A stretch of DNA of 64,000 nt, from assembly GCA_018693315.1 (NCBI GenBank), contig JABHLR010000004.1:34138-98137 (forward strand). The letters run 5' to 3'. Under the pieces are notes generated by a model, which did not search any database, was not told where the DNA came from, and was given only the letters and a program-made list of their open reading frames with translations. Made by a program: the position numbers and the translations under genes. This stretch comes from an archaeon (lineage in GTDB: Archaea > Nanobdellota > Nanobdellia > Pacearchaeales > GW2011-AR1). This document shows, piece by piece, positions 6,471 through 48,615 of this stretch. How positions within the stretch are numbered: the first letter of the stretch is position 1; each line of letters starts with the position of its first letter.

Positions 6471-6866
6471 CTACTTCTTATTTTTCCACTTATTTCTCGG
6501 TTTCCGCAAAAACAAATAAGCAAAATAAGCAACTAGCAAAACAAATATCACTCCGAAAACAAGAGCAAGATAAAAATTAAGCGTGTACTTCTCATCAGCC
6601 TCACCGCCAGAATAATCCGGAGCAGTATAACCGTAATCATAAGGAACATCGGTCACATCATCATCACTATCATTATTAGTGTCGTTAATAACAATTGGAT
6701 CAACATCAACATCGGTATCGTTAATATCAGTATCATTATCACTTTCGTTATTGGAATCCCTATCCGAATTAATATCCCCCCAATCTCCTGCAGCACAAAC
6801 TAATCCAATCGCAAAAACAAAAACAAACAGCCACACAAATCCTTTTCCTATAAATTTCTTTAGCAT
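6471..6866 (-). CDS. membrane-anchored acidic D/N-rich protein
   Basis: Signal/anchor MLKKFIGKGFVWLFVFVFAIGLVCAAG, a D/N-rich middle, and a C-terminal TM plus KPRNKWKNKK. Start trimmed from 6989 to avoid overlapping the divergent GTPase gene. Confidence 0.5.
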   Translation of the reverse strand: MLKKFIGKGFVWLFVFVFAIGLVCAAGDWGDINSDRDSNNESDNDTDINDTDVDVDPIVINDTNNDSDDDVTDVPYDYGYTAPDYSGGEADEKYTLNFYLALVFGVIFVLLVAYFAYLFLRKPRNKWKNKK

Positions 6867-23700: not shown

Positions 23701-24246
23701 ATATTTCGCAAATCCAAAATGCTCCCGTAAATAATCAATCAGCATCAAACAAACACAAATCGAAGTCGTCCCAGCCGCACGAATCGGCCCACTAAAACTC
23801 GCAACAAAATAATCCTTGCCACCTTTAGTCTTCTCCAACTTCAATCCAGTATAACCCTCAATCGGACACGAAACAACACCAAGCGTAATATAAGCAAACC
23901 CAACACGAATCCCAGCATCAATCGCCTCCATCCTATCTTTAAACTTACAAAATTTCTCCTCAGCAATCTCACGCGCAATCACAAAACTCACAGTCGTATC
24001 CAACTGCCCATATTCAGATTCAAGTTCCAAAATCCTAGCCGTAATTTTTTCCACCGGCAACTTGGGGTACACCGTACTAATCAGAGCAACCGACTTCTCC
24101 GCCATCGTCATCGCCAACGGAATCTCAACACCATCAACAGGATCCAACCCCAAAGCTCTCGCAGACTTCGCAACATCATACTCCCTATCAACCCCAACTT
24201 TCAAATCTCCAAAATATTTCTCAACATCCCACTTATACATTCTCAC
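20785..24246 (-). CDS. polC: DNA polymerase II (PolD) large subunit DP2
   Basis: 1153 aa. The N-terminus YFGDLKVGVDREYDVAKSARALGLDP, C-terminal Zn-finger clusters (CECGNEGVYRTCEKCG; CSKCNEKFRRPPLKGSCTKCEG) and length fit DP2. 14-nt overlap with DP1. Confidence 0.9.
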   Translation of the reverse strand: MRMYKWDVEKYFGDLKVGVDREYDVAKSARALGLDPVDGVEIPLAMTMAEKSVALISTVYPKLPVEKITARILELESEYGQLDTTVSFVIAREIAEEKFCKFKDRMEAIDAGIRVGFAYITLGVVSCPIEGYTGLKLEKTKGGKDYFVASFSGPIRAAGTTSICVCLMLIDYLREHFGFAKYDPTEEEVKRYVQENTDYQERVTNLQYFPTEEEMVFLAERLPIQIDGDPTERLEVSNYKDLKRVGTNRIRGGMCLTFSEGLAQKAGKALGRLRSCKNNGLKCTGFDWLSDYLEVHKKREVGSDDTVATYIKDLVAGRPVYGHPSRSGGFRFRYGRGRTAGFSAVSIHPATMGISNGFLSHGTQLKIERPTKGCIITSCDSIDGPIVKLKNGSVRKLKTFDEAKSLYKDTEEIIYLGDMLFPVGDVIDRNADLLKPGYVEEIWGLEVQDYSTQNHGVLDPAFLVENEIGIDGAIEISRKTGVALHPKFIFYWIEISNEDFFELSKWLNNGVWREGKLVLPWEESVREKFGEGKRALEILGVEHDVVLDNIVIDGDAKALLVNLGIKEMYNGEVLSLKVDEVDERSVLEIVNSMSEFEIRDKAGSFVGARMGRPEKAKLRALTGSPNSLFPVSNQGGRLRSVQEAVSTGYVKVDSPIYKCECGNEGVYRTCEKCGAKPKRFKFCRGCREVKSGDCKLHDVTFDYMNKKIEIGKYFDVAVKRLGYEEHEVPPMVKGVRDLNSDGKDVENLAKGILRAKFNLSVNKDGTVRYDGTEIPLTHFKPKEIRTSVDKLKELGYNKDIDGKDLVNENQVLELKPHDVVMPSCSKTKDEKADDVFFNIANFIDEELERFYKLPRHYNLKNKSDLVGHLVVCMAPHNCAGVVGRIIGFSEMQGLVASPYMHAAMRRDCDGDEAAVMMLMDVLLNFSRKFLPSHRGGSQDAPLVLNARIRAGEVDDQILFFETCDKYPLEFYKMAEEGRHSSEAKVELVRDRLKGGEFEPFVGAGFTHDTSDINLGETNGAYKVLPTMKEKVAAQMELVGKIRAVDEDDVARLVLERHFIRDIRGNLRKFARQGFRCSKCNEKFRRPPLKGSCTKCEGKIIFTISEGSIKKYLEPALELMRDYDISSYTKEGMELTQEYIEGIFGKGEEQTTLV

Positions 24247-25768
24247 CCCTCCTCAAATCACAAACCAAATCATCACCCTCTTCCCACTTAACAGCATCCT
24301 CACTAAAATCAATTATCTTAACCTCACGTGTCTTCAAATTAAACAAAGGCACCTTACATGGATCAGGAATATTCCCAATCTTTTCCTCGAACGGCGTAAT
24401 CGACTGCCAACACGAACCAGCAACCAACAAAATATTATTATAACTATCAACCTCCGCCCGATGCTGATCTCCCGTCACAACAATATCCGGCACATCACCA
24501 ATAACTAAACCATCCTTCTCCTCACACGGCACATAATCCATCAACCCATGAGTCGGCGCAATATGTCTCCGCTTCAACATTTCCTTAACAACCCGAGTCG
24601 GATTCCCATGCCCAACACTCGTCCGAATATCACTCATCTCATCAATAAACCGATTAATACTCGCCCCATGATACATCAAAATCTTGAATCCATCAACATC
24701 AACCATAGAAGGATTCGTAACCAAACGCACATTTTCCATACGATGCAAACCCGGAGCCCATTTATCAGAAACGGTCCTCTGTGGCTCACCAACCCAAACC
24801 GCATCATGCTGCCCAGCACACATCACAATCTGCACATCACTCCGAATCTTCCGCAAAATCTCCTCCAACTTCCGATACTGCCCCCGACAACTCTTAATAT
24901 TCAAAAACCTCTCCTGCCCCGGATGATTCCCAATCCCATCAACACAATCCCCCGCCAAAAACAAATACTTCACCTTCCTCGCAATCGCCTTCTGCCTCTC
25001 GTCACCAACCTCGCCATTCAACCAATCAATAAACTTCAAAGCACTACTCTCCAAAAAATTCTTCGACCCAACATGAAAATCCCCACTAAACGCGACATAC
25101 TCATCCGCATCCCCAAATCTCTCGCTCTCCAACTTCGCATCAGGAAAAATAATCTCATTCGCAAACAACATATCACTCGAACCCGAAACACGAAAAACAA
25201 CAATATCATCCAACATCAAATTCCTCGCCTCCTCAAACAAAACCCTATTCTCCTTATTTACAAGCACAATCGAATTCCCAGTCAAATCCTCAACCTCCAA
25301 AAGCAAATTTTTATTCTTCGTAATCCTCTTAGATGTCACCATCGCAATAATCGAATAAACCCCACTATTAACCCCAATCCGACGAATCGAACTCAGATTA
25401 CCTGCTTGCAGGTTCTTGTGCTGCGAAGCAGTATCAAAATTACTAATAAAAATCTCCCGAATCGCCTCATACCTCGCACGAAAATGCCGAACAAAATCAC
25501 CAACCTCAACTTTCCCAGATTTAAACTTAATATCCGACAACAGCTTCACATCCCCACTCTTCACAACCTCAACCTTCCCAAAATATTTCCCAAACTTATC
25601 AGGATGCTCATCAAAAATCTTCCTCGTCACAACCCTAACGCCAACTCCATCCAAAATCCCAACAACCTCCAAAGCAACATCCTCACCCAAGCCACTCAAC
25701 ATCCCAAATACCTCTTTATCCAAAAGAAGACCCTTCTTCATACACTCCTCCAATATCAAATTCACCAT
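24233..25768 (-). CDS. polB: DNA polymerase II (PolD) small subunit DP1
   Basis: 511 aa. Calcineurin/Mre11-like phosphoesterase motifs (FSGDFHVGS, LFLAGDCVDGIG, VTGDQH) plus an OB region. Sits directly upstream of DP2. Confidence 0.9.
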   Translation of the reverse strand: MVNLILEECMKKGLLLDKEVFGMLSGLGEDVALEVVGILDGVGVRVVTRKIFDEHPDKFGKYFGKVEVVKSGDVKLLSDIKFKSGKVEVGDFVRHFRARYEAIREIFISNFDTASQHKNLQAGNLSSIRRIGVNSGVYSIIAMVTSKRITKNKNLLLEVEDLTGNSIVLVNKENRVLFEEARNLMLDDIVVFRVSGSSDMLFANEIIFPDAKLESERFGDADEYVAFSGDFHVGSKNFLESSALKFIDWLNGEVGDERQKAIARKVKYLFLAGDCVDGIGNHPGQERFLNIKSCRGQYRKLEEILRKIRSDVQIVMCAGQHDAVWVGEPQRTVSDKWAPGLHRMENVRLVTNPSMVDVDGFKILMYHGASINRFIDEMSDIRTSVGHGNPTRVVKEMLKRRHIAPTHGLMDYVPCEEKDGLVIGDVPDIVVTGDQHRAEVDSYNNILLVAGSCWQSITPFEEKIGNIPDPCKVPLFNLKTREVKIIDFSEDAVKWEEGDDLVCDLRRGENV

Positions 25769-25849: not shown

Positions 25850-27076
25850 CTAAATCCCCAAACTATCAACCAAAATAGCCTCAACCTTATCAAACAAATT
25901 AGTAGGAACCGACAACCTAATCTCCCGAGTCCGACCATGCCGCCCCTTAGAAATCACCTTAGCATTTATCAAACCCAACATATCAATCTCAGCCAAAATA
26001 TCAGAAATCCTCCTCTGAGTTAAAGCATCCGTCTTCGTCCGATCACAAACATCCTGATAATAATTATAAACATCCCCTGTATAAAACCGCTCCTTACTAT
26101 CCTTAGCCGCCTTCGTCAATTCCATAATCGAATACAAAACCAACTTAAACTGCTTCGGCTCACCCTCAACAATATCCAAAATCTTATCCCGCTCCATCTT
26201 CAAATTCGCCAAATCAATATAATCCTCCCCAATCGCCTTCTCCCCATCCCTCTCCGACAGCTCCGCAGCAATCCTCAACAAATCCAAAGCCCTCCTCGCA
26301 TCCCCATGCTCCCGAGCCGCATAAGCCGCACACTTCGCAATCACCCCGTCAGCAACAACATCCTCCTTAAACGCCGCCTCACACCTCTCATTCAAAATAT
26401 CCTGCAACTGAATCGCATTATAAGGATGAAAAACAAACTCCTCCTCCCCAAGAGAACTCCGAACCCTCGGATCAATATTCTCCAAGAAAGTAACCTCATT
26501 AGAAATCCCAATCAACGAAATCTGCGCCTGACTCAACTCCTGATTCAACCGAGTAAACGAATATAAAAAGTTACTATCCATTTTCTTAATCATTTGATCA
26601 ACCTCATCAAAAACAAAAACAATCAACTGCTTCTTAGAATCAACCAACTCAATAAACTTCGCCCAAACCTGATCAGTCGGCAAACCCGTCGATGGAATCT
26701 CCCCACCAAGCTGCCGAATCAAAGCCGCCAAAACCCTATACTCCGTATCCGCAACCTTCTTCAACTTACAATTCAAATATTCAAACTTCACATCAACACC
26801 AAGTTCCTTAGATTTCTTCAAAATCTCATCACTAACATACTGCACCGACAAAGTCTTCCCAGTCCCAGTCTTCCCATAAACAAACAAATTACTCGGCCTC
26901 TCACCCCTCAAAGTCGATGCCAAAATCGAAGCAATCGACTTAATCTGCTCATCTCTATGAGGAATCGAATCCGGAGTATGCCGAACCTGCAAAACCCCTT
27001 TATTCTTAAAAAGACTATTATTCACCGCCGAATTAAAAATCTCGCCCAATTCAACTCCCATTTCCAATATCACCAA
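25850..27076 (-). CDS. cdc6: Orc1/Cdc6 replication initiator
   Basis: Walker A VYGKTGTGKT, Walker B VFVFDEVD, and a C-terminal winged helix. Start is uncertain: TTG 27076, GTG 27073 or ATG 27061. Confidence 0.9.
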   Translation of the reverse strand: MVILEMGVELGEIFNSAVNNSLFKNKGVLQVRHTPDSIPHRDEQIKSIASILASTLRGERPSNLFVYGKTGTGKTLSVQYVSDEILKKSKELGVDVKFEYLNCKLKKVADTEYRVLAALIRQLGGEIPSTGLPTDQVWAKFIELVDSKKQLIVFVFDEVDQMIKKMDSNFLYSFTRLNQELSQAQISLIGISNEVTFLENIDPRVRSSLGEEEFVFHPYNAIQLQDILNERCEAAFKEDVVADGVIAKCAAYAAREHGDARRALDLLRIAAELSERDGEKAIGEDYIDLANLKMERDKILDIVEGEPKQFKLVLYSIMELTKAAKDSKERFYTGDVYNYYQDVCDRTKTDALTQRRISDILAEIDMLGLINAKVISKGRHGRTREIRLSVPTNLFDKVEAILVDSLGI

Positions 27077-27146
27077 ATTTCATAAAACAATCAACTTTCA
27101 AAACTATTTAAACTTTCATATACTCGAAAATATATTCTGACACCTC

Positions 27147-27466
27147 CATTTCCTATAGAACTTTATAATAATAACACTCTTCTCTAATTAATTAAATTTT
27201 AGTAAATCTCCGTCGACAAACCCCTTTTCCACAGGAAACCCTCCCCCTCCCCTATTTCCACTCCAAGAGAAATCAATCTCAAAAGAATTCTAAAAAAGAA
27301 TCACCTCATTCCTATTATACACTACAATACATACTATTACAACATATATAATACAATATATACATTATAATATATATAATATATAATATAAATACTTATA
27401 AATGAAAATTAAAAACCTCAAACCCAAATCTTCCCAAAACCCTTAAAAAACTTTCCATAAGAAACC
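27147..27466. other. candidate replication origin (ORB-like boxes flanking a G-free AT-rich unwinding element)
   Basis: TTTTCCACAGGAAACC (27225..27240), CTTTCCATAAGAAACC (27451..27466) and CATTTCCTATAGAAC (27147..27161) flank a G-free stretch of about 100 nt (27301..27403) rich in TATA/ATAA. The position directly upstream of cdc6-DP1-DP2 matches the Pyrococcus-type replication island. Confidence 0.5.
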
Positions 27467-27584
27467 ATAGGGTCACACCCAAAATCACAAAAAAAGGTAA
27501 TAAAGTTCGCACAATCCAGACAACATAATTAACAAACAATTCCCCTCTTCACTACTAAAAATCAATAAAAATCCCAAAGAAAGA

Positions 27585-27592
27585 TTTATAAA
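27585..27592 (+). promoter_or_regulatory. TATA box (TTTATAAA) of the PRC-barrel gene
   Basis: Ends 22 nt before ATG 27614. Confidence 0.5.
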
Positions 27593-27613
27593 CATTTCAT
27601 ATCTAAACATACC

Positions 27614-28335: not shown

Positions 28336-28360
28336 GCCCATATCACATAACAGTATTGCC
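28336..28360 (+). pseudogene. decayed copy of the tRNA-Ser 5' acceptor/D-arm segment
   Basis: gcccatatcacataacagtattgcc versus tRNA gcctgtatcgcataacggtattgca: 20/25 identical. Differences are G>A (x3), T>C (x1) and one A/C at the 3' end. Confidence 0.5.
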
Positions 28361-28495
28361 GAACAATTCACTTCGAGCAAAACAAAAACATGCCTGTATC
28401 GCATAACGGTATTGCACGCGGCTCGAACCCGCGGCCCTTACGGGCGTCCCCGTTCGATTCGGGGTACAGGCGTTTTGTGAGATGTAAATTGTGAG
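28361..28495 (+). repeat. A-B hairpin element copy 1, with the intact tRNA-Ser in its loop
   Basis: A arm gaacaattcacttcgagcaaaac (28361..28384) and B arm ttttgtgagatgtaaattgtgag (28473..28495) bracket the tRNA. They are homologous to the contiguous copies at 28544, 48141 and 48495. Confidence 0.6.
28392..28472 (+). tRNA. tRNA-Ser (anticodon CGA)
   Basis: Hand fold: GCCTGTA/TACAGGC acceptor, 3-bp D stem, CGCGG-CTCGAAC-CCGCG anticodon arm, 14-nt variable arm (GCCC..GGGC), CCCCG-TTCGATT-CGGGG T arm, discriminator G. 81 nt, no encoded CCA. Confidence 0.85.
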
Positions 28496-28498
28496 TCA

Positions 28499-28538
28499 GG
28501 CTCGAACCCGCGGCCCTTACGGGCGTCCCCGTTCGATT
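28499..28538 (+). repeat. perfect 40-bp direct repeat of tRNA-Ser positions anticodon loop to T loop
   Basis: ggctcgaacccgcggcccttacgggcgtccccgttcgatt is identical to 28420..28459. The tRNA 3' end ggtacaggcg (28463..28472) recurs at 28602..28611. Confidence 0.9.
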
Positions 28539-28543
28539 TAAGC

Positions 28544-28597
28544 ATCTTCGCTTCGAGAAAAACAACTTTAAGATATTTTCGAGATGCAAAGTGCGAG
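28544..28597 (+). repeat. A-B hairpin element copy 2
   Basis: catcttcgcttcgagaaaaacaactttaagatattttcgagatgcaaagtgcgag lies between the 40-bp tRNA-Ser fragment and the 10-bp 3'-end fragment. Confidence 0.7.
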
Positions 28598-28614
28598 CAG
28601 AGGTACAGGCGTAA

Positions 28615-30671: not shown

Positions 30672-31331
30672 ATGGATCCAATAAAAGAGGCATTCTCCAA
30701 AATTAAAGAAGATATCCAGTCTTTAAGAGACGAAATAACACAGCTGAGACTCCAACAGACAGACATTCAGACACATAACCAGACAACTCCCACACATAAC
30801 ATGCCGCAAATACCCCAACAGACAGACATTCAGACACATAATCAAGCATATTCTGCACAAAATCACCACATACAGCCCCCATACAGTCCAAATATACAGA
30901 GTTCCATAGGAAATGAAGGGGTTCCAACAAACAGACAAACAGACATACAAACACACCAACAGACACATAATTACACCCAAAATACACCAAATTCAGACTT
31001 CAAGCAAGCAAATAATATATTATCATCACTTGACAACATAAAGAAAGGGATACGCCTAAAATTCAAACGCCTAACCCCCCAAGAAATGCTAGTTTTTAGC
31101 ACATTATACGCCCTAGAAGAGCAAAATTACGACGAAATCACCTATCGCACCCTCGCCACACAACTCAAGCTCAGCGAGTCCTCAATCCGCGATTACATCA
31201 ACAAACTAAGCAAAAAGGGCGTTCCAATAGACAAAATCAGACAAAACAACAAAACAATACTACTGCAAATATCCCCAGATCTAAAAAACATAGCCACTTT
31301 GGCCACAATCCAAGACCTCAGAGAATTATAA
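30672..31331 (+). CDS. coiled-coil / Q-T-H repeat / C-terminal wHTH protein
   Basis: 219 aa. N-terminal heptad-like KEAFSKIKEDIQSLRDEITQLRLQ, three QTDIQTH(N/Q)Q repeats, and a C-terminal LTPQEMLVFSTLYALEE..SESSIRDYINKLSKKGV wHTH. ATTATAAA box 22 nt before the ATG. Confidence 0.6.
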   Translation: MDPIKEAFSKIKEDIQSLRDEITQLRLQQTDIQTHNQTTPTHNMPQIPQQTDIQTHNQAYSAQNHHIQPPYSPNIQSSIGNEGVPTNRQTDIQTHQQTHNYTQNTPNSDFKQANNILSSLDNIKKGIRLKFKRLTPQEMLVFSTLYALEEQNYDEITYRTLATQLKLSESSIRDYINKLSKKGVPIDKIRQNNKTILLQISPDLKNIATLATIQDLREL

Positions 31332-31470
31332 AATCACAAACATTAACTTTTAATATTTATTTTACCGTCGATAAAATGATTTCTACAGATAAATCTAGCA
31401 AACTTTTTGCGGAACTATCAATAAAGATACACGTTATTCGGTTAAACGATTATTAAGTTACATCTAATTA

Positions 31471-31633
31471 ACTCACTTTTCCACCAAAAACCACCCTCTA
31501 AAACCCCGAATCTCACATATTCGAGTCCGTTTTTATTTTGAATTTAATACACCAACATACTCACTTTTCCACCAAAACCCCCACATTATCGACACTCACT
31601 TTTCACCTTTTTGATAACCACTCACTTTTCGCC
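31471..31633 (+). repeat. iteron-like array of ACTCACTTTTC(N)CC
   Basis: Copies start at 31471, 31559, 31594 and 31620, with a degenerate copy at 31672. They lie in the intergenic region between the two convergent wHTH genes. Confidence 0.8.
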
Positions 31634-31676
31634 CAAAAAAGCACTGAATTTCTAGTCAAAATACACCCTCTAACTC

Positions 31677-32282
31677 TCACTTTTTCGATTTTGACCCTTT
31701 TATCTTAACTTTTACACTTTTAATGATCACTGACCTAACCTCATCAGGGATATATAGCCTTTTTTTGCCATTTGACTCCCTAACTTCCATAATAATACCC
31801 TCTTTCTTCTGCTTTATAGTGTTAATTTGACCCCTTATCGTACTCCTATCTTTACCAAGTAACGCAGCTAGATCTTCATAGCTAAGCTTCATCTCAGAGT
31901 TTAACAGAGCCCACACGATGGCCCTCTCCATTACTGTAAAGTTGTCCAAAATACCTGATTGAACACCTGTTTGCGCAACTGTTTGGACAGCGCCCATGGA
32001 CGGTTGTTTTACAACAGCTGTTGGTGCTTGTTTGGACAATGTACCAGAAAGCTGCGGACCAAAGAAAGAAATGAAGTCTTTTATCTCAACAAGGTCCTCA
32101 TGGACAAGTAAAAGTTGATCTTTTATCATAGAGATTTCATCAGCATGTGACACGTGTTTATCGTCGAGGTGCTTAATCCATTCACCAACTTTATTGAAGT
32201 CTTTCTTTACATGATTGAAAGAATCTTGCACTTCACCTCTTAATTTTTCAACCTTTTTTTTGTGTCCAAATAAACCAAACAT
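31677..32282 (-). CDS. coiled-coil / C-terminal wHTH protein (same architecture as 30672..31331)
   Basis: 201 aa. N-terminal helical region, a Q/T/V-rich linker, and C-terminal FTVMERAIVWALLNSEMKLSYEDLAALLGKDRSTIRGQINTIKQKKEGII wHTH. Base composition is atypical for a minus-strand gene here. Confidence 0.6.
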   Translation of the reverse strand: MFGLFGHKKKVEKLRGEVQDSFNHVKKDFNKVGEWIKHLDDKHVSHADEISMIKDQLLLVHEDLVEIKDFISFFGPQLSGTLSKQAPTAVVKQPSMGAVQTVAQTGVQSGILDNFTVMERAIVWALLNSEMKLSYEDLAALLGKDRSTIRGQINTIKQKKEGIIMEVRESNGKKRLYIPDEVRSVIIKSVKVKIKGSKSKK

Positions 32283-32337
32283 CTTATTAATTTTTAATCA
32301 ACTTTCTTTATAAATGTTTCGCGTTTTTGGACAGCCA

Positions 32338-32390
32338 ACACCCGTTTAAACAGCAAAACGCCAAAAAAACACCCGTTTAAACAGCAAAAC
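32338..32390. repeat. two 22-bp direct repeats ACACCCGTTTAAACAGCAAAAC upstream of the 31677..32282 gene
   Basis: Copies at 32338..32359 and 32369..32390, with a degenerate third near 32474. TGTCCAAA/TTGGACAG words recur nearby. Confidence 0.7.
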
Positions 32391-32603
32391 ACCACACCTG
32401 TCCAAAGCATAAACACTAACTTTTATCGTCGGTAAACAACAAAACAATTATAAAATTTTTAAACAAGCAACCCACACCCACTTAAACAGCTAAAAAACAC
32501 TGTTTTAGCACCAAACACGTCCAAATACTGTCCAAACAACACCCCTCAAACACCCCAAAATCCACGCCAAAAAGATTATAAACTTCGAATTCTATAAAGA
32601 AAC

Positions 32604-32897
32604 ATGCTGTTCAAAAAGAAGTTGATGTACGCCGGAATCATTTCTGCGGCCACATTAGTTGCCTCAATTTTTATGCGATTAGTTCCATGTAGGGTATCGC
32701 CAAATCTTCCAAATCCACTCTACAAATGGACACTCTGTTCCCTAAATCCAGACACATATCAAGCCACTGGATCTATCACAGAATATTTTGGATACACAAC
32801 AGCACTAACCGAATCATACATTCTCACACTCTTACTAACATTCGTCGTGGTAATGATATTTTTTCATTTCACCACAAAGAAAAAAAGAAAAGATTAG
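32604..32897 (+). CDS. small membrane protein
   Basis: 97 aa with two hydrophobic helices. ATTATAAA box 22 nt before the ATG. Confidence 0.5.
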   Translation: MLFKKKLMYAGIISAATLVASIFMRLVPCRVSPNLPNPLYKWTLCSLNPDTYQATGSITEYFGYTTALTESYILTLLLTFVVVMIFFHFTTKKKRKD

Positions 32898-32913
32898 AAG
32901 GAGGTAAACAAAA

Positions 32914-33105
32914 ATGAGCGGAAACAATTTAGTATCAGTCCTAACATGGATCGTCGGTGTCATCGTAGCACTTGCAGTCGGTTCAGGTATGATTGATGGC
33001 GTATTAGCAGTTCCAGGAATCCCAGGAATTGTAACTGTTGTAGCTGGTTGGATCGTAGTTGTCGGTGCAATCATAAGCATAATCCTAGCTATCTTCAGCA
33101 AATAA
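32914..33105 (+). CDS. small membrane protein
   Basis: 63 aa with two G/V/I-rich helices. Strong SD ggaggt 8 nt before the ATG. Confidence 0.5.
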   Translation: MSGNNLVSVLTWIVGVIVALAVGSGMIDGVLAVPGIPGIVTVVAGWIVVVGAIISIILAIFSK

Positions 33106-33279
33106 GTCCACAAATTTTTTATTATTTTTTCTTTTGTCCGGGCAATCCGGACATCCCAATTTTTTAATTACCTCTTTTCACTTAGCTAACCTTAGTGCAC
33201 AATCGCCGGGTACGGAGACAGATTTTAGCAAGCCCAAGACAACAATAATCCTTAAAAACCATCCTTCAAATTAACTATT

Positions 33280-33639
33280 ATGTCAATTCCACACGTAACA
33301 TTATCCACTAAAGATTTAAGACCCGGAACAATTCTCCACGACGTTGCTGACAGTATGCCAATAAAAATTCTAGAAGCAAACTTCACAGGATCCTCAGACG
33401 AACACTACGTAAAATACCGACTCCCAGGGCCAAAGAGATCTGAAATAACAACAAGAGGCGCTCTTAAAATCCACGACACTTTTCTAACCAGATACGAAGT
33501 CGTCAAGGATTCAGAGCTCGAACAAAAAGCACTCCAAAACCAACAAGACGCAATCAGACAAACAGCACAAGGCGAAATAGACCAACTCCAAGTTTACGCA
33601 GATTTTTTAAGAGATAATGCCAATTCCAAGCAAAAATAG
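33280..33639 (+). CDS. hypothetical protein
   Basis: 119 aa. CTTAAAAA box 22 nt before the ATG. Confidence 0.5.
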   Translation: MSIPHVTLSTKDLRPGTILHDVADSMPIKILEANFTGSSDEHYVKYRLPGPKRSEITTRGALKIHDTFLTRYEVVKDSELEQKALQNQQDAIRQTAQGEIDQLQVYADFLRDNANSKQK

Positions 33640-33746
33640 CCCAAAGTTCGCACAACATAGATTGTATGACGTTCTTCCATGCCTAAACGAACGGAAATGA
33701 CCCGTTTGCACAAACTTTATAATGTGCGAACGCCTTTTTATTGAAA

Positions 33747-34244
33747 ATGGTGATAAAGAAATGTAGCAACTGCTCTGAAGAAAAAGAACATCATGCCAAG
33801 GGTCTCTGTTACGCATGTTACAAGAAGCTAAAGTGGCAACCGAAAATCTCAAGCTGTAAAAGATGCAAGCGAAAAATGGCCCTCCATGCTAAAGGATTAT
33901 GTGCCGGCTGCTACAATTACATCTTTCACCTCGATAAAAACAAGGCCTACAGCCAGCGAAAATCCAACAATGTGGATCTCAAAACATTCCGAAAAGTCAC
34001 AAAATCCTGCGCTATCTGCGACTTCGACAAAATCGTAGACATACATCATATCGACGCCAATAAACAAAACAATTCACAAAAAAACCTAATTGGCCTCTGT
34101 CCAAATCATCATCGCATGATCCACAATTTCAATTTCCGAAACGAAATCTTCCAAGCCCTCAAAGAAAAAGGCTTTGATCTTCCATTTGACGAAAAAATGG
34201 CCTTCCATAAGACCCCTCAGACCCCAAACTCAGACAATTTCTAA
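33747..34244 (+). CDS. HNH endonuclease-domain protein with N-terminal CxxC zinc-finger repeats
   Basis: CSNCSEEKEHHAKGLCYACY and CKRCKRKMALHAKGLCAGCY repeats, then CAICDFDKIVDIHHID..NLIGLCPNHHRMIH (HNH). Confidence 0.75.
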   Translation: MVIKKCSNCSEEKEHHAKGLCYACYKKLKWQPKISSCKRCKRKMALHAKGLCAGCYNYIFHLDKNKAYSQRKSNNVDLKTFRKVTKSCAICDFDKIVDIHHIDANKQNNSQKNLIGLCPNHHRMIHNFNFRNEIFQALKEKGFDLPFDEKMAFHKTPQTPNSDNF

Positions 34245-34396
34245 CCAAACTCAAATCAATCCTAACAAATTTTAAACAATTCTACAACAATTCCCCCAAC
34301 TTCTTAAAAAACGCTTCTCAAAACCGCTAAAATCCCCAAATTGCCCATTTTTCCATCATTTTTTGCCAAAAATCGCCAAAATCAACAATTCGCAAA

Positions 34397-34565
34397 GTGA
34401 AAAAGTGAGAGTTAGCTATTTTACTAAAAAAGGTTGATCAAAAGAGAAAAAGAGAGATCGTAAAAAATCAGACAAAAAGAGCCAAAATCAGCAAAAAATT
34501 AAGGAAATACATTAGAAAATAGAGAGTTGGTAAAACCAACCCCACACAAAAGAAAAGTGAGAACG
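34397..34565 (-). repeat. inverted copies of the CTCACTTTTC motif
   Basis: gtgaaaaagtgagagt (34397..34412) and gaaaagtgagaac (34553..34565), with degenerate copies near 34441 and 34518. These are reverse complements of the 31471..31633 array. Confidence 0.6.
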
Positions 34566-34680
34566 CAAAATCAGCCCATATCCTTACAAAATCCAAACAC
34601 ACAAAACATAAAACAGCGACGACAAACACAAACACAAACACAAAGATAATAGTTATTCGGTTAACCGAAATTCAAATTAA

Positions 34681-35016
34681 TTACTTACTAGCTCTAAAAC
34701 AATCCCTACATAAAACTGGCTTACCGCCTGGAGTCGGTTTAAACGGTACAGTCGTGTTTTTCCCACATTCAGCGCAAACAACTGCAACATCCTTTCTGTT
34801 GTCGTTTCTATTGTTATATCCGCCTCGATTACCACCACGATTACCACCTCGGTCGCCGCCTCGGTTCCCACCAAATCCACGATTATCATTTCTAGGTCTC
34901 CCCTTTCTAAAACAATCATTACATTTCACAGGCCTTCCTTCTTTTGGCTCAAACGGAATATCGCACTCCTTACCACAGTCAGAACAAACCGCTTTGAACA
35001 TTTTTCTATCTTCCAT
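34681..35016 (-). CDS. double zinc-ribbon protein with RGG-repeat linker
   Basis: CSDCGKECDIPFEPKEGRPVKCNDCF and CAECGKNTTVPFKPTPGGKPVLCRDCF flank GFGGNRGGDRGGNRGGNRGG. Start ATG 35016 follows a minus-strand TTTTTATAGG box. Confidence 0.65.
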   Translation of the reverse strand: MEDRKMFKAVCSDCGKECDIPFEPKEGRPVKCNDCFRKGRPRNDNRGFGGNRGGDRGGNRGGNRGGYNNRNDNRKDVAVVCAECGKNTTVPFKPTPGGKPVLCRDCFRASK

Positions 35017-35059
35017 ACAAAATGAATCGAAACGCCCTATAAAAACCTTTGCCCCAAAA

Positions 35060-35067
35060 TCTATAAA
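35060..35067 (+). promoter_or_regulatory. TATA box (TCTATAAA) of xerA, followed by the AAAGTTCGTACAA motif
   Basis: The box ends 22 nt before ATG 35089. The 13-nt motif (35071..35083) fills the TATA-to-ATG gap. Confidence 0.5.
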
Positions 35068-35088
35068 CCAAAAGTTCGTACAATCTAA

Positions 35089-35913
35089 ATGCAAAAAGAG
35101 GACTTTTTGAAAAAACTTGAGACAGAATTAAAGATAGCTAAAAATTCAGAATACACAATCCGAAATTACATCAACGCAAACGAAAGATTAATTGACTTCA
35201 TAGAAAAATCACCGGATCAAATCACAACAGATGACACAAAACTCTTCATCGCAGAAAATCTAACAGACAAAGCCGCAACATCAATCATACTTTTCCTAGC
35301 CGCAATCAAATACGCAAGCATCACAATTTTCAACACAGACATCACCGCCCCAATCAAACGACCAAAAAAAGAAAAACGACTTCCAATAACTCTTTCAAAA
35401 GACGAAATCAAAAAATTACTCGCAGAACTCAAAACTGAAAAGTCAAAACTCATGATAAGCCTAATGTACGCCTGCGGATTCCGAGTTTCAGAATTAGCAA
35501 ACCTAAAAATCCAAGACCTAAACTTCCCAGAAAAGATCGGACACATCAGGCAAGCCAAAGGGAACAAAGATAGGCTGTTTAATATTCCCGAGTTTCTCGT
35601 CGACGAATTACAAGATCTGGTTGTTCTACAAAAAAATCACCAACAAGAATTTTTATTTTCAGGAAGAAGCGGAAAAATCTCAACAAGGAACCTACAAAAA
35701 ATTGTTTCATCAGCCGCAAAACGCGCAGGATTAGATGGCGTCCACTGCCACCCCCTCCGCCACTCTTTCGCAACCCATCTTTTAGAAAATAATATAGACA
35801 TCAGAAAAATCCAAGAACTTTTAGGCCACGCCGATCTCTCGACAACCCAAATCTACACTCACGTCTCAACTGAAGAACTCAAAAAAATCAAATCCCCCCT
35901 AGATAATTTATAA
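35089..35913 (+). CDS. xerA: tyrosine recombinase, XerA/XerC/D-like
   Basis: 274 aa. C-terminal HPLRHSFATHLLENNIDIRKIQELLGHADLSTTQIYTHV (R..HxxR..Y catalytic pattern). Confidence 0.8.
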   Translation: MQKEDFLKKLETELKIAKNSEYTIRNYINANERLIDFIEKSPDQITTDDTKLFIAENLTDKAATSIILFLAAIKYASITIFNTDITAPIKRPKKEKRLPITLSKDEIKKLLAELKTEKSKLMISLMYACGFRVSELANLKIQDLNFPEKIGHIRQAKGNKDRLFNIPEFLVDELQDLVVLQKNHQQEFLFSGRSGKISTRNLQKIVSSAAKRAGLDGVHCHPLRHSFATHLLENNIDIRKIQELLGHADLSTTQIYTHVSTEELKKIKSPLDNL

Positions 35914-35937
35914 AAAATAAAATAAAATTTCGAAGAA

Positions 35938-36171
35938 TCACTTCTTCTTTTTCTTAGTAGTCTTTTTCGCAACAGCCGCATTAACAGGGCAACTTCCACC
36001 ACCAATTAACAGAACCAAAATCACAAACGCTCCAACAAACCACCAAACATTTGTAGCCTGCACCCAACTAGCAAGTCCAGTCCAAAGATTCAGAACAATA
36101 AAGACAAAAGCGATAACAGCAAGCTTGCCAAAAAACATCTTACTACCATCCACACCTTCACATTTAATCAT
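35938..36171 (-). CDS. small membrane protein with Lys-rich tail
   Basis: 77 aa with two helices, ending KKTTKKKKK. Confidence 0.4.
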   Translation of the reverse strand: MIKCEGVDGSKMFFGKLAVIAFVFIVLNLWTGLASWVQATNVWWFVGAFVILVLLIGGGSCPVNAAVAKKTTKKKKK

Positions 36172-36213
36172 ATAGCACCTCCAAAAATAACAAACACTTC
36201 TACTATAAAAACC

Positions 36214-36651
36214 TCACGCATTCCGAGCCTTCATCCATTCCAAAACTTCCAATCCCTCTTTCCCCCGAATATCCACAGCAAACTCAACCTCACCATCTTC
36301 ACAATTCTCCAACATTTCCAATTCCTGTGTCTCGGGATCAATACCACGAACTTCCTTGACAAAACAAGTCCCATCACAATAAACAGCCTCATCTAAAATC
36401 GCATCAAAATTATCACGAATAAAATCAGGCGCATCACCCAAATCAACACTCATCCCATTCTCCTCAGCCAAATCAACACAATTCTGCACATTTTCACAAA
36501 GAGCCTCGGTATTACTCGCCTCACCAACACAAACCCTCACGGTCTTAAAAACATGAAAATTATAAAAATAAATCGCAGCAATTCCAGCAATCAACAAAAT
36601 CGCAATTATCACAATCAAAATAATCTTCCCAATCAAACCCTTCTTTTCCAT
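36214..36651 (-). CDS. membrane-anchored Cys-containing protein
   Basis: MEKKGLIGKIILIVIIAILLIAGIAAIYF anchor followed by an acidic ectodomain with 6 Cys. Confidence 0.5.
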   Translation of the reverse strand: MEKKGLIGKIILIVIIAILLIAGIAAIYFYNFHVFKTVRVCVGEASNTEALCENVQNCVDLAEENGMSVDLGDAPDFIRDNFDAILDEAVYCDGTCFVKEVRGIDPETQELEMLENCEDGEVEFAVDIRGKEGLEVLEWMKARNA

Positions 36652-36700
36652 CAAGAACCAAACACAAATCATTTTATAAATTCTTCCACCCTAAACTTGT

Positions 36701-37231
36701 ATGACATGCAAAAAGTGCGGGTACCAAGATCACAAAGAAACAATACTATTCGGAAGCCCACTCTGCCAAGTCTGCGCAACATTCGCCCCAGAAAAAGTCC
36801 ACGACTTCCAAGACTACATCTCGGAAAAAATCGATTGGAAAAAACTAGACACCTTCAGAAAATTCGATCAATCTCCAGGCAGAAAGCAAAAACAAGGAAT
36901 GCAAAAAATGGCAACAATCGGCAGGCTTCAAACAAGACCACCTCTAGGCTACGACGTCCAAAACGGAAACCTAATCCCAAACGAAGACGCAGTCCGAGTT
37001 CACTCACTCTTCAAAACATTCCTAGCCAGAACCTACTCACTAAACTCCCTAGCAAAAAACTTCTCACTCTCAATCAACGGCCTCAAAAAAATCCTAACAA
37101 ACCGAACCTACCTAGGCGAAATAAAATTCGACGGCAAAATCCACAAAGGCGACCACCCACAACTAATCAACTCAGAAATTTTCTACGCCGCCCAAAGAAA
37201 ACTCAAAGACTATCTAAGACCAAGAAAATAA
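36701..37231 (+). CDS. zinc-ribbon + 'recombinase' domain protein (serine-recombinase middle domain without the resolvase catalytic domain)
   Basis: MTCKKCGYQ..CQVC. PPLGYDVQNGNLIPNEDAVRVHSLFKTFLARTYSLNSLAKNF..LKKILTNRTYLGEI..HPQLINSEIFYAAQ matches the large-serine-recombinase 'Recombinase' domain pattern. TTTATAAA box 21 nt before the ATG. Confidence 0.6.
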   Translation: MTCKKCGYQDHKETILFGSPLCQVCATFAPEKVHDFQDYISEKIDWKKLDTFRKFDQSPGRKQKQGMQKMATIGRLQTRPPLGYDVQNGNLIPNEDAVRVHSLFKTFLARTYSLNSLAKNFSLSINGLKKILTNRTYLGEIKFDGKIHKGDHPQLINSEIFYAAQRKLKDYLRPRK

Positions 37232-37588
37232 CTATTTTCTTTTAAATCCTTTCACACCTAATAGTCTTGTCAACTCATTAGGAAGTTTTCCGTCCCCAGA
37301 AGCACTCTCTACGTAAACACTAACAGAATATTCAGAAGATGTCTGATTTTCAGATACTCTGCGGGATTTTGGATCTTCGATAGGTGGCTGGACAACAGCA
37401 ATAGTTTTATCAAAATCCTGAAAAAGATATCTTCCATCGCCAACATGAGCAGACCTACTAATTATATCTCTACGAATTGTATCATTAGCGGAAGGGCTCA
37501 GCATTCTAAAGCGTCCATGCGTCTCATCTCTATCAGGCTCACCCAAAGCACCAACATAATTTCTTTTAAATACAATTCCTGGAGCCAT
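37232..37588 (-). CDS. hypothetical protein
   Basis: 118-aa ORF. Base composition is atypical for a minus-strand gene in this region. Confidence 0.4.
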   Translation of the reverse strand: MAPGIVFKRNYVGALGEPDRDETHGRFRMLSPSANDTIRRDIISRSAHVGDGRYLFQDFDKTIAVVQPPIEDPKSRRVSENQTSSEYSVSVYVESASGDGKLPNELTRLLGVKGFKRK

Positions 37589-37635
37589 AAAAAATCAACC
37601 AAAACCCACTTTATAAAAATTTATATCCTGCAGAA

Positions 37636-38037
37636 CTACCTAAACGAAGTCTGCCTATTCGCCCGAGCCTTAGAATCCCCTGGCTTACAAGCCTCTTTCC
37701 TTCGAGTATCAGCAATCAACATATTCCTATCATACGCCAAAAACGCATTCTTCAAATCATCATTCTTCGTAAACTTAACAATAGCCTTAGCAATAGCCAA
37801 ACGACCAGCTTCAACCTGGCAAGCAAGCCCGCCACCCTTAACATTCAAAGCAATATCAAACTTCAACTCTCCCAAAACATCACTCGCAATAATCAAAGGC
37901 TCATTAATCTCCAACTGCTGCAAATCACTCAAAAAACTAAGCGGCCTCTTATTAAAACTAATCTTCCCAGCCCCATCCTCAATAGTCGCCTTAGCAACCG
38001 CAGTCTTTCTCTTTCCAGCAACAACCATTTTATCCAT
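37636..38037 (-). CDS. rps9: 30S ribosomal protein S9 (uS9)
   Basis: GKRKTAVAKA.. near the N-terminus and a C-terminal end ..KPGDSKARANRQTSFR. Position in the conserved cluster. Confidence 0.9.
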   Translation of the reverse strand: MDKMVVAGKRKTAVAKATIEDGAGKISFNKRPLSFLSDLQQLEINEPLIIASDVLGELKFDIALNVKGGGLACQVEAGRLAIAKAIVKFTKNDDLKNAFLAYDRNMLIADTRRKEACKPGDSKARANRQTSFR

Positions 38038-38038
38038 T

Positions 38039-38440
38039 TTATTTCAATATCCTCACGATTTCTTTAATTGTCGAAAACTTCATCGGCTTCTTATGCGTCA
38101 ACTTAATAACATCCTTAGCTTCGTCAGGATTTCCAACATAACATTTCAATCTCCTAAAAGCATCCTGCCCTTTCATCCTATCCCGAGGCAACATCCCCCT
38201 AATCATTCTCTTAACCAAACGATCAGCAACTCTAGGATACTTAGGACCCTTCATAGAACCACCAGAACCCATATCCCTCTTAGTCAAAACCTTCTTCGCG
38301 AAAACCTTCTTATCCCCAGAAACAATTATCGCCTCACAATTAATAAGATCAACAGAATTCCCCTTCAACAATTCCTTAGCCACAACACTCGCAATCCGAC
38401 CAAAAACACAGTCAGTCCCATCATAAACTAATTTACTCAT
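38039..38440 (-). CDS. rpl13: 50S ribosomal protein L13 (uL13)
   Basis: The N-terminus VYDGTDCVFGRIASVVAKELLKG is typical. Cluster position. Confidence 0.9.
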   Translation of the reverse strand: MSKLVYDGTDCVFGRIASVVAKELLKGNSVDLINCEAIIVSGDKKVFAKKVLTKRDMGSGGSMKGPKYPRVADRLVKRMIRGMLPRDRMKGQDAFRRLKCYVGNPDEAKDVIKLTHKKPMKFSTIKEIVRILK

Positions 38441-48036: not shown

Positions 48037-48112
48037 GCTCTCGTAACTCAGCCTGGATTAGAGTGCTTCCCTCCTAAGGAAGAAGTCGCAAGTTCAAATC
48101 TTGCCGAGAGCG
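48037..48112 (+). tRNA. tRNA-Arg (anticodon CCT)
   Basis: Hand fold: GCTCTCG/CGAGAGC acceptor, ACTC..GAGT D stem, CTTCC-CTCCTAA-GGAAG, GCAAG-TTCAAAT-CTTGC, discriminator G. 76 nt. Confidence 0.85.
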
Positions 48113-48140
48113 TCCAGATTTGAACTAAGACTGTCGCAAG

Positions 48141-48200
48141 CGAACAACTCGCTTCGAGCAAAACAAAGTTCTTAATTTTTTGCGAGATGCAATTTGTGAG
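48141..48200 (+). repeat. A-B hairpin element copy 3
   Basis: cgaacaactcgcttcgagcaaaacaaagttcttaattttttgcgagatgcaatttgtgag. Inner stem GCAAAA/TTTTGC, outer stem CTCGC/GTGAG. Confidence 0.7.
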
Positions 48201-48202
48201 TA

Positions 48203-48220
48203 AAATCTTGCCGAGAGCGT
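48203..48220 (+). repeat. 18-bp direct repeat of the tRNA-Arg 3' end
   Basis: aaatcttgccgagagcgt is identical to 48096..48113. gtcgcaag (T-stem 5' strand) is also repeated at 48133..48140. Confidence 0.85.
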
Positions 48221-48260: not shown

Positions 48261-48331
48261 GCGTGGATAGTATAATGGTAGTATAATTGGTTTCCAACCA
48301 ATTGGCCTGGGTTCAATCCCCAGTCCGCGCA
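48261..48331 (+). tRNA. tRNA-Gly (anticodon TCC)
   Basis: Hand fold: GCGTGGA/TCCGCGC acceptor (one G-U pair), ATTGG-TTTCCAA-CCAAT, CTGGG-TTCAATC-CCCAG, discriminator A. 71 nt. Confidence 0.8.
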
Positions 48332-48334
48332 TAC

Positions 48335-48417
48335 GAGGGAATGCCGGAGCGGTCAAACGGGGCAGACTCAAGATCTGTTAGCTTATGCTTACGGGGGTTC
48401 GAATCCTCCTTCCCTCA
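48335..48417 (+). tRNA. tRNA-Leu (anticodon CAA)
   Basis: Hand fold: GAGGGAA/TTCCCTC acceptor, GCAGA-CTCAAGA-TCTGT, 14-nt variable arm, GGGGG-TTCGAAT-CCTCC, discriminator A. 83 nt. Starts 3 nt after tRNA-Gly. Confidence 0.8.
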
Positions 48418-48494
48418 TGTATGGTTTCAAAGAAACCATTCAATAAGTAGAATTCTAAGGCTGGAGAGAAGCCAAGAAATTGAATAGTCGGGGA

Positions 48495-48556
48495 CGAACA
48501 ATTCGCTTCGAGTAAAACTAATATCGAAGATATTTTTACGAGATGCAAATTGCGAG
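48495..48556 (+). repeat. A-B hairpin element copy 4
   Basis: cgaacaattcgcttcgagtaaaactaatatcgaagatatttttacgagatgcaaattgcgag. Inner stem GTAAAA/TTTTAC, outer stem TTCGC/GCGAG. Followed by ggaatctccttccc, a near-repeat of the tRNA-Leu 3' end. Confidence 0.7.
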
Positions 48557-48615
48557 GGAATCTCCTTCCCCCCAAGCCCCACAAACTTTAAAACACACAA
48601 TTCTCTAAATATAAC

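Follow-up and report, generated by a model that had tools for sequence, protein, structure and literature searches.

The A-B element is a conserved hairpin that occurs four times in the 64-kb stretch of archaeal DNA analyzed here (contig JABHLR010000004.1, positions 34,138 to 98,137; hereafter the window). On balance, comparison of its sequence contexts makes it probable that the element is the conserved ~60-nucleotide (nt) imperfect-palindrome core of miniature, non-autonomous DNA elements that integrate into the tRNA genes of Woesearchaeota/Pacearchaeota-type DPANN archaea. By sequence reading all four copies lie on the + strand, at 48141-48200, 48495-48556 and 28539-28597, and as a split copy whose arms occupy 28360-28382 (A) and 28473-28495 (B). 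The repeat is real and far beyond chance. A gapped pattern for the element matches the window three times against 0.00 expected, and a covariance model built from 16 copies, run over the window with filters off, assigns 58-78 bits (E 1e-15 to 1e-20) to the three compact copies and detects no further copy in the 64 kb. The split copy scores 58.4 bits by this model when scanned in L099, whose sequence is identical to the window (L-numbers are labels of the related loci or contigs that were compared with the window). Four tRNA genes are called in the window by ARAGORN, namely Ser(CGA), Arg(CCT), Gly(TCC) and Leu(CAA), together with one 5S rRNA by Rfam.

A preliminary description of this DNA had reported the four copies, and their places stand with slightly shifted ends for the compact serine copy (Ser-2, which starts at 28539) and for the split copy (28360-28382). 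The gene calls agree with its claim that all four lie beside tRNA genes, and its argument from spacer lengths and reading frames that the element is non-coding is correct. Its interpretation survives in part: of the candidates that it offered, a tRNA-targeting integrative or miniature mobile element is favored by an island-like signature, by filled, empty and stacked states in relatives and by the replacement of a tRNA-Ser allele, whereas an intron or processing stem is contradicted by degenerate exons, an adjacent intact tRNA, the lack of a bulge-helix-bulge and an antisense orientation in 5 of 23 copies. Its third candidate, a new structured non-coding RNA, fits the conserved mismatches and strand asymmetry described below; it is not needed, and it leaves the antisense copies and the tRNA flanks unexplained.

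Hairpins between pieces of tRNA genes

Every copy in the window sits between pieces of the adjacent tRNA, a point absent from the preliminary description, and the pieces recur in the order intact tRNA, short spacer, and a partial second tRNA copy that is broken by the hairpin. At the arginine locus (this and all further features of the three loci are on the + strand), the intact tRNA-Arg(CCT) gene at 48037-48112 (Rfam tRNA, 62.9 bits), which is identical to the tRNA-Arg of L249, is followed at 48114-48126 by a spacer, S, that is an inverted copy of the T-arm (the reverse complement of tRNA-Arg positions 55-67, matching at 12 of 13 positions; inverted repeat I1). Sequence reading then identifies a forward copy of the variable loop and the 5' strand of the T-stem (n+W', AAGACTGTCGCAAG) at 48127-48140. 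Next comes the compact hairpin that formed the original finding (48141-48200; 74.4 bits, E 1e-19), and beyond it, at 48201-48220, TA and the displaced 3' end of tRNA-Arg, which extends from the T-loop to one nucleotide past the discriminator base; the displaced segment proper, X, occupies 48203-48220 and is an 18-nt exact repeat of 48096-48113. The AAGACTGTCGCAAG string is also found in L027 and L255, where it equals L255's own variable loop, ATGTC, plus one extra base. Inverted spacers of the S type follow 10 other tRNAs in relatives. The inverted spacer and the forward stem copy after it form a near-palindrome centred between GAC and GTC in L002, L011, L027, L032, L079, L152, L185, L195 and the window (48114-48126), and L152 and L185 have GA in place of the expected TC, which creates another tandem G.A.

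The leucine locus repeats the arginine layout with a more decayed 3' copy. Specifically, the intact tRNA-Leu(CAA) gene (48335-48417; ARAGORN and Rfam) is accompanied by a copy of the 5' strand of its T-stem (W', GTCGGGGA) that sequence reading places at 48487-48494, the compact hairpin at 48495-48556 (77.6 bits), whose loop is identical in the L248 ortholog, and a degenerate displaced tRNA-Leu 3' end (X, GGAATCTCCTTCCCCCC) at 48557-48573 that matches tRNA positions 72-82 at 10 of 11 sites. The flank ccccacaaactttaaaac, which follows X directly, is kept in L248 and L249. A short perfect hairpin (arms atggtttc and gaaaccat, loop aaa) stands directly 3' of tRNA-Leu at 48418-48442 and is kept in relatives (L248); at L027 2134-2178, 9 nt copied from the tRNA-Leu 3' end come after a similar short hairpin.

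The serine locus is nested. It opens with P' (28336-28359), a displaced 5' fragment of the resident tRNA-Ser (positions 1-24, 20 of 24 identical to the intact tRNA) with the acceptor sequence GCCCATA, located directly after the conserved promoter-like ttcattaattttcaa, where the native gene begins. The split, cargo-bearing copy follows; both of its arms, A (28360-28382) and B (28473-28495), agree exactly with their arm patterns, and the covariance model spans them from A to B. Between these arms lies an intact tRNA-Ser(CGA) gene (28392-28472; ARAGORN) that is identical at 81 of 81 positions to the simple gene of L241. The arms enclose this gene exactly: 9 nt separate the A arm from its 5' end, and the B arm abuts its 3' end with 0 nt between them. 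After the B arm comes TCA, the native 3' flank, found directly after tRNA-Ser in L241, L242 and L243. A forward copy of tRNA-Ser positions 29-68 (Q', 28499-28538, 40 of 40 identical to 28420-28459) then leads into the compact hairpin Ser-2 (28539-28597; 58.3 bits, E 8.6e-15), which is situated in the T-loop of this partial tRNA-Ser copy. Following CA, the locus ends with a 3' fragment of tRNA-Ser (R', positions 70-81, 28600-28611) that agrees with the tRNA 3' end at 11 of 12 positions.

Relatives, distribution and target sites

Orthologous loci, retrieved through their flanking proteins, occur in filled, empty and stacked states. The empty state of tRNA-Ser, in which the promoter leads straight into a plain gene and the hairpin is missing, is present in L241, L242 and L245, whose neighboring proteins are 89%, 84% and 74% identical to those of the window, respectively; the intergenic region measures 121-133 nt in L241/L242 and 38 nt upstream in L245, compared with 307 nt in the window. 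Two acceptor alleles of tRNA-Ser exist: GCCCATA/TATGGGC in L242 and L245, and GCCTGTA/TACAGGC in L241, L243 and the intact window gene. The window thus holds both states, as P' carries GCCCATA, and the same arrangement is seen in L243/L244, where a decayed GCCCATA-type 5' fragment and a degenerate A arm precede a GCCTGTA-type gene. The resident allele has been replaced: the remnant of the old allele upstream of an intact gene of the other type indicates that an arm-bounded unit carrying a tRNA-Ser gene displaced the resident gene. The occurrence of the filled state in the window and L243, with L241 and L242 empty although they are closer relatives, suggests horizontal spread. In L243 a tandem repeat (several units of acaacaaaaac, ~1655-1760) takes the place of the B arm and the downstream fragments after tRNA-Ser, and L245 contains an open reading frame (ORF) of the LAGLIDADG homing-endonuclease family (3668-4138) 1.2 kb downstream of its simple tRNA-Ser.

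At tRNA-Leu, L248, L250 and L251 (SecF 91% identical) have everything that the window has here and, in addition, one 80-nt module accompanied by 17 nt that repeat the tRNA 3' end exactly. The addition lies between the tRNA and the older module, which makes a clean filled/empty pair and shows stacking. At tRNA-Arg, L249 has the spacer and an 11-nt 3' copy only, with no hairpin, and L255 retains S and W' and lacks both hairpin and X; an uninterrupted W'-loop-X fragment was seen in no relative. The arginine modules of the window, L027 and L255 look orthologous and have in common AAGACTGTC, a copy of the variable loop of L255 and not of the window. When window 48127-48220 is compared with L027 2265-2375 and L255, the X segment, stem copy and spacer track the window-specific tRNA-Arg substitutions (5 of 5 in the last 19 nt), a pattern of concerted evolution in which only the variable-loop-derived AAGACT stays ancestral while the rest of the module follows the tRNA. 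Repeated excision and re-integration, with the downstream copy periodically serving as the real 3' end, would explain this pattern. The order and orientation of the Arg/Gly/Leu cluster vary between relatives, and its tRNA-Gly(TCC) contains an intron of 17-31 nt at the canonical position in L027 (2423-2510), L252 (1434-1537) and L255 (655-744), with none in the window (48261-48331) or L249.

The family is restricted to one group of archaea. A scan of one genome per species with the gapped pattern produced 98 matches, 11 of which carry the whole element, all in Woesearchaeota, Nanoarchaeota or unclassified archaeal metagenome-assembled genomes. A metagenome scan with the A arm alone revealed at least ~10 further loci with genuine copies; 112 of the 119 A-arm matches listed are without the B-arm core, and most of the matches listed are due to chance. 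Viral contigs searched with two patterns contained no element, only coincidences in coding sequence. Overall, at least 25 distinct copies were recovered, all in Woesearchaeota/Pacearchaeota-type (DPANN) genomes among the matches listed, and 23 of the 25 are within 260 nt of an intact tRNA, over 16 tRNA species (isoacceptors), with 18 in sense and 5 in antisense orientation to it. The two copies without a tRNA nearby are those of L083, located between convergent protein genes, and L210. The 16S-23S rRNA spacer of L086 contains, after tRNA-Ala, two hairpin copies and a B-arm-like remnant (6211-6398 and ~6566-6593), which from their location within this spacer are presumably co-transcribed with the rRNA precursor; the flanks of the second copy are not tRNA-derived. 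In L203, a lone A arm with no B arm (812-829) follows tRNA-Pro and an inverted spacer, ~25 nt upstream of a small gene that possibly encodes a ribosomal protein.

The tRNA-linked modules are built to a nearly constant size of 88-106 nt and contain no ORF. An inverted copy of the arm that was hit recurs at most tRNAs, +2 to +20 nt past the tRNA end, and most modules have, beginning +88 to +106 nt downstream, a forward copy that matches the tRNA 3' end at about 95-100% identity. The T-loop is the site most often interrupted, and the others are the 3' strand of the T-stem, either side of the anticodon loop (L002, L144, L007/L013), the D-loop and positions 24-28 (D-region cases being the window Ser-1 copy and L247). 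In L002, whose hairpin lies in the anticodon loop, the inverted piece comes from the anticodon arm, and in L144 (same loop) the match lies just 3' of the arm. Upstream 5' tRNA fragments are found at the window serine locus, L095 and L007/L013. In L141 and L095 the duplication takes in 21-90 nt of non-tRNA flank (21 nt in L141), so that the L141 copy derives from the target region.

At the junctions 3-4 nt of the loop are lost and a fixed-length target duplication is absent. This bears on the main rival to integration, in which an independent palindromic transposon, similar to miniature transposable elements with inverted repeats (MITEs) or repetitive extragenic palindromes (REPs), would target the stem-loops of tRNA-like DNA, the tRNA duplication and the hairpin being separate events. 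Such a transposon, which we consider unlikely, would fit the imperfect 23-nt terminal inverted repeats, small size and many copies in both orientations, the nesting seen in L152, the tRNA-free surroundings of L083 and L210, the second L086 copy with its non-tRNA flanks, and the tRNA-derived remnants without hairpin in L249 and L255; that copies are seen only in redundant tRNA fragments, displaced earlier by other integrative elements or duplications, would follow if insertions in functional genes were lethal. However, loop nucleotides are lost where a target-site duplication would be expected, no relative has the uninterrupted W'-loop-X, and the comparison of L248 with the window reveals that insert and 17-nt tRNA copy arrived jointly (the insert in this case being a different element type). 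The nearly constant module size and the failure to find a transposase also argue against it. Short repeats at the ends (4-nt YGAR, TA) were considered as a target-site duplication and rejected, since the two ends of a copy are not alike and take part in stem pairing, and a casposon-like fixed duplication of 14-15 bp was rejected, as the repeats vary from 9 to at least 40 nt.

Hairpin structure and explanations at the RNA level

The consensus of the element is 5' YGARCAATTCGC...GCAAATTGYGAG 3', and its arms pair collinearly over ~23 nt as a single rod of 17 pairs that is 94.9% paired across 22 distinct copies. The 5' side of the rod reads Y-GA-R-CAATT-C-GC-U-UC-GA-G-N-AAAA and the 3' side UUUU-N-C-GA-GA-U-GC-A-AAUUG-Y-GA-G. 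Compensatory change occurs at 9 pairs, which none of 500 shuffles matches, and every slid register collapses. Four spots in the rod are never Watson-Crick: two tandem G.A/A.G motifs (CGAG facing CGAG), one C.A and one U.U. Of the helices drawn in the preliminary description, the inner stem (G-N-AAAA/TTTT-N-C) does covary, pair 20:33 being CG in 14, UA in 6 and GC in 2 cases, but the outer stem (yTCrC/GyGAG) had been placed in the wrong register, in which the same 22 copies change no pair on both sides and are mostly G.U. The folding energy is ordinary (z -0.3 to -1.95), and the complementary strand folds equally well or better. Under the covariance model the strands are asymmetric, one scoring 58-83 bits and the other 10-27, a gap of ~50 bits.

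Other hairpin families occupy the same slot and have common termini, 5' (C)GAR...YGAG followed by TA or CA 3'. At least four other short element families were noted between the stem copy and the displaced tRNA end, in L032, L095 and L152 (type 2), in L024, in L252, in L247, and in L248, L249 and L252 (type 4); type 4 has these ends too, on a mini-hairpin of 5 bp, together with ~27 extra nt. Units are stacked in L248, L152, L024 and L032, with arrays of at least three units in L152 and L024, and L152 holds a second palindrome (~70 nt) nested inside the hairpin loop.

The covarying rod with its conserved non-Watson-Crick positions is also what would be expected if the hairpin were a functional RNA or transcript-level signal, either a protein-binding stem with tandem G.A pairs or a bidirectional transcription stop or processing signal after tRNAs, with the tRNA fragments incidental. 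This proposal, which we regard as quite improbable, draws further on the strand asymmetry, the sense orientation of 18 of 23 copies, the run of four to six T in the 3' arm of every copy, the position of L083 between convergent genes, and the preservation of the arms, in which L027 departs from the window at 3 of 46 positions while the tRNAs are only ~78% identical. However, the opposite strand folds as well at an unremarkable energy, five copies are antisense to the only nearby transcription units, and the tRNA pieces at the flanks and the gain and loss among close relatives would be left unexplained. In agreement with the preliminary description, no known RNA family is represented: Rfam searches at the gathering threshold and at E<=10 return tRNAs and 5S rRNA only, none on the hairpin. 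By Rfam, hand-drawn registers and sequence reading, there is no C/D box (RUGAUGA, CUGA), H/ACA box or kink-turn (K-turn); the tandem G.A pairs have Watson-Crick pairs on either side and no 3-nt bulge, unlike those of a K-turn. Both bulge-helix-bulge registers, drawn by hand on the Arg, Leu and L002 junctions, fail because the required 4-nt segments are not complementary, so the earlier claim that C/D, H/ACA and canonical bulge-helix-bulge geometries are missing is upheld as well.

The bulge-helix-bulge result bears equally on the idea that the hairpins represent introns of archaeal tRNA genes or leader duplexes of split tRNAs, with the W'-hairpin-X segments as real intron-containing genes or as halves joined by the splicing endonuclease. 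The interrupted positions do fall at sites where non-canonical introns are known (T-loop, 37/38, around 25), the A arm is complementary to the B arm in the manner of split-tRNA leaders, disrupted tRNAs are known in DPANN archaea (PMC3293823; bioRxiv 10.64898/2026.05.13.725050), and it has been proposed that an attP with an intron in it could act as an intron vector (PMC8371274, citing Sugahara 2012). We nevertheless consider this idea very improbable, since neither register fits, antisense copies exist, and the same tRNA always has an intact gene without an intron next to the interrupted copy. Moreover, most interrupted copies are without the tRNA 5' half or have broken anticodon or acceptor stems (e.g. 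the outer copy at the window serine locus), the pseudo-Cys of L007 has its anticodon mutated to ACA, and with 3-4 loop nt missing splicing would not restore the T-loop. A split-tRNA leader duplex of the Nanoarchaeum type was also rejected for the serine locus, as P' and Q' together form a pseudogene with two acceptor-stem mismatches and the intact tRNA-Ser lies between them. An origin by reverse splicing or retro-copying, considered because the boundaries match mature tRNA ends, was discarded in view of antisense hairpins within sense tRNA copies, the duplicated non-tRNA flank in L141 and L095, and the absence of CCA.

Proposed integration and known systems

As the flanks are island-like, the units are gene-free and only ~90-110 nt long, and no recombinase lies nearby, we read the modules as elements that are served in trans. 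In the integration that we propose, an element would enter a stem-loop of a tRNA gene, in most cases the T-loop and in others the D-loop, the anticodon loop or positions 24-28. As in the islands of tyrosine integrases, the inserted DNA would supply a substitute for the tRNA sequence past the crossover. The outcome would be an intact tRNA on one side and the native fragment stranded across the hairpin, giving the typical unit of S (inverted hit arm), W' (forward stem copy), hairpin, TA or CA, and X (displaced 3' end). Units stack with the newest adjoining the tRNA, and at the serine locus the two arms bound a unit carrying a complete tRNA-Ser gene, which has replaced the resident allele. A trans-acting tyrosine recombinase, possibly the host XerA-like enzyme, presumably performs the reaction, and the hairpin would then be a folded single-stranded or arm-type recognition site beside the crossover.

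The sole recombinase found in the window is a XerA-like tyrosine recombinase gene (35089-35913, + strand; Pfam Phage_integrase 1.4e-43; NCBIfam recomb_XerA_Arch 214.5 bits against a cutoff of 220), 7-13 kb from the hairpins. A tblastn search with this recombinase across 156 kb of related loci detected none inside or beside the modules, and among the window proteins no DDE, HUH, TnpB or other transposase and no REP-associated tyrosine transposase (RAYT) was found. An autonomous insertion sequence with the same ends was not seen in the window, the related loci or the metagenome matches listed. The neighborhood of the XerA-like gene (30672-38431) consists of ORFs without family matches, a helix-turn-helix protein (30672-31331) and a weak match to a RecA-dependent nuclease (33747-34244), and may be either a housekeeping region or an integrated element of old date. 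Elsewhere in the window a full-length bacterial-type DnaE (17140-20310, - strand; PHP, pol3_alpha, finger and HHH domains; 1123.9 bits against an NCBIfam equivalog cutoff of 1002) is encoded directly beside PolD DP2 (20785-24240), DP1 (24233-25768) and Cdc6/Orc1 (25850-27061) on this archaeal contig, and the ~540-nt intergenic region by cdc6/orc1 (27077-27613), ~0.8 kb from tRNA-Ser, may be a replication origin.

Several points weigh against integration as proposed. An autonomous relative, with a recombinase gene between the two arms, was not found, and neither an excised circle nor a restored junction was observed; 14 contigs from other samples of the window's population are 100% identical to it across the Ser and Arg/Leu loci and so give no sign of current mobility. 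The attR of a simple integrase would be an uninterrupted W'-loop-X, whereas at the present loci the displaced copy has the hairpin within its loop and has lost 3-4 loop nt, so the reaction is not that of a textbook integrase. Att sites described so far contain nothing comparable to the inverted spacer S. At the serine locus, Q' and R' are of the incoming allele type, the B arm stands between the intact tRNA-Ser and Q', and the nested arrangement is not derivable from one simple event; a single-event derivation was attempted and none was found. Finally, the conserved non-Watson-Crick spots, the 50-bit strand asymmetry and the arms that are better kept than the tRNA (window compared with L027) would also fit a functional RNA.

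A more specific proposal is tentative, and we hold it to be possible but less likely than not. It states that these modules form an undescribed class of ~100-nt 'micro-integrative elements' of DPANN archaea, each consisting of a strand-specific folded hairpin (termini 5' GAR...YGAG-TA 3', tandem G.A) and short segments matching the target tRNA. To integrate into tRNA stem-loops, these elements would hijack a tyrosine recombinase of the host, for instance XerA; they would bring in substitute tRNA segments or whole tRNA genes and thereby drive allele turnover, with repeated excision and re-integration keeping the att copies matched. If integration is the correct reading, some of the smallest archaeal genomes known have tRNA genes that repeatedly receive elements ~fifty times smaller than any tRNA-integrating island described so far, and the strategy of regenerating the target and displacing a fragment works without any element-borne gene. 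It would also supply a concrete source of the tRNA fragments, pseudo-introns and odd tRNA calls that trouble DPANN annotation, and a mechanism for tRNA allele replacement, as exemplified by the window tRNA-Ser, which equals a relative's gene and has the old-allele remnant upstream. The hairpin with its fixed non-Watson-Crick spots would be a defined substrate for archaeal tyrosine recombinases acting on folded DNA, and the elements would bear on the origin of disrupted tRNA genes, both those with non-canonical introns and split genes.

Among known systems, close precedents are the islands of tyrosine integrases and the viruses and plasmids integrated in tRNA genes (PMC4383910; archaeal review PMC8371274). 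Such islands are marked by a regenerated tRNA gene and a displaced fragment, with T-stem and anticodon sublocations being common and 3760 3' fragments as compared to 159 5' fragments in the Islander survey (PMC4383910); a 7-nt loop with flanking palindromic stems matches the core site of a tyrosine recombinase (PMC8371274). Most A-B modules likewise have a regenerated tRNA and a displaced fragment in direct orientation, the block of identity runs from the T-loop or anticodon loop to the tRNA 3' end and so matches the known crossover sublocations, 5'-fragment cases are a minority, and tandem arrays form at one tRNA. Unlike islands, the A-B units span ~90-110 nt instead of kilobases and have no integrase or other gene, the displaced fragment is separated from the stem copy by a hairpin in the loop, an inverted copy of the hit arm lies beside the regenerated tRNA, and one related hairpin family serves 16 tRNA species (isoacceptors). 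In bacteria, cis-mobilizable elements (CIMEs) lack an integrase, keep their att sites and undergo tandem accretion (PMC5704250). A-B units resemble CIMEs in having att sites without integration genes and in piling up at one att site, where a copy of the target end separates successive units; repeats (c and X) flank each unit. CIMEs, however, are decayed kilobase-sized integrative and conjugative (ICE) or integrative and mobilizable (IME) elements of Firmicutes, and the A-B units are two orders of magnitude smaller, have a palindromic core and reside in DPANN archaea.

MITE- and REP-like elements are similarly short, non-coding and multi-copy, and the imperfect, covarying terminal inverted repeats (23-nt arms), the nesting and the occasional non-tRNA copies of the A-B family are reminiscent of them. 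In contrast to such elements, no direct repeat abuts the arms as a target-site duplication, no related transposase or RAYT was found, occurrence is near-exclusive to tRNA stem-loops, and forward and inverted tRNA segments accompany the insertion. The integron attC site and the attP(+) site of CTX phage are imperfect hairpins with a variable loop and conserved, strand-specific unpaired positions, and in these systems, as at the A-B modules, the hairpin directly adjoins the recombination junction and a target duplication of fixed length is missing. The A-B consensus differs from attC in lacking R''/R' boxes (RYYYAAC/GTTRRRY) and in having no integron integrase or array platform, and the target is a tRNA stem-loop instead of attI or dif. 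The disrupted tRNA gene of Caldiarchaeum (Sugahara et al. 2012, PMC3293823) involves a 1.8-kb recombinase-encoding insert and functional introns in the product, whereas at the window serine locus the insert amounts to one 23-nt arm with 9 nt on the 5' side of the regenerated tRNA and another 23-nt arm on its 3' side, and the tRNA copies that are interrupted are pseudogenes; nevertheless, the two loci present the same succession of an upstream 5' tRNA fragment, an insert and a regenerated tRNA.

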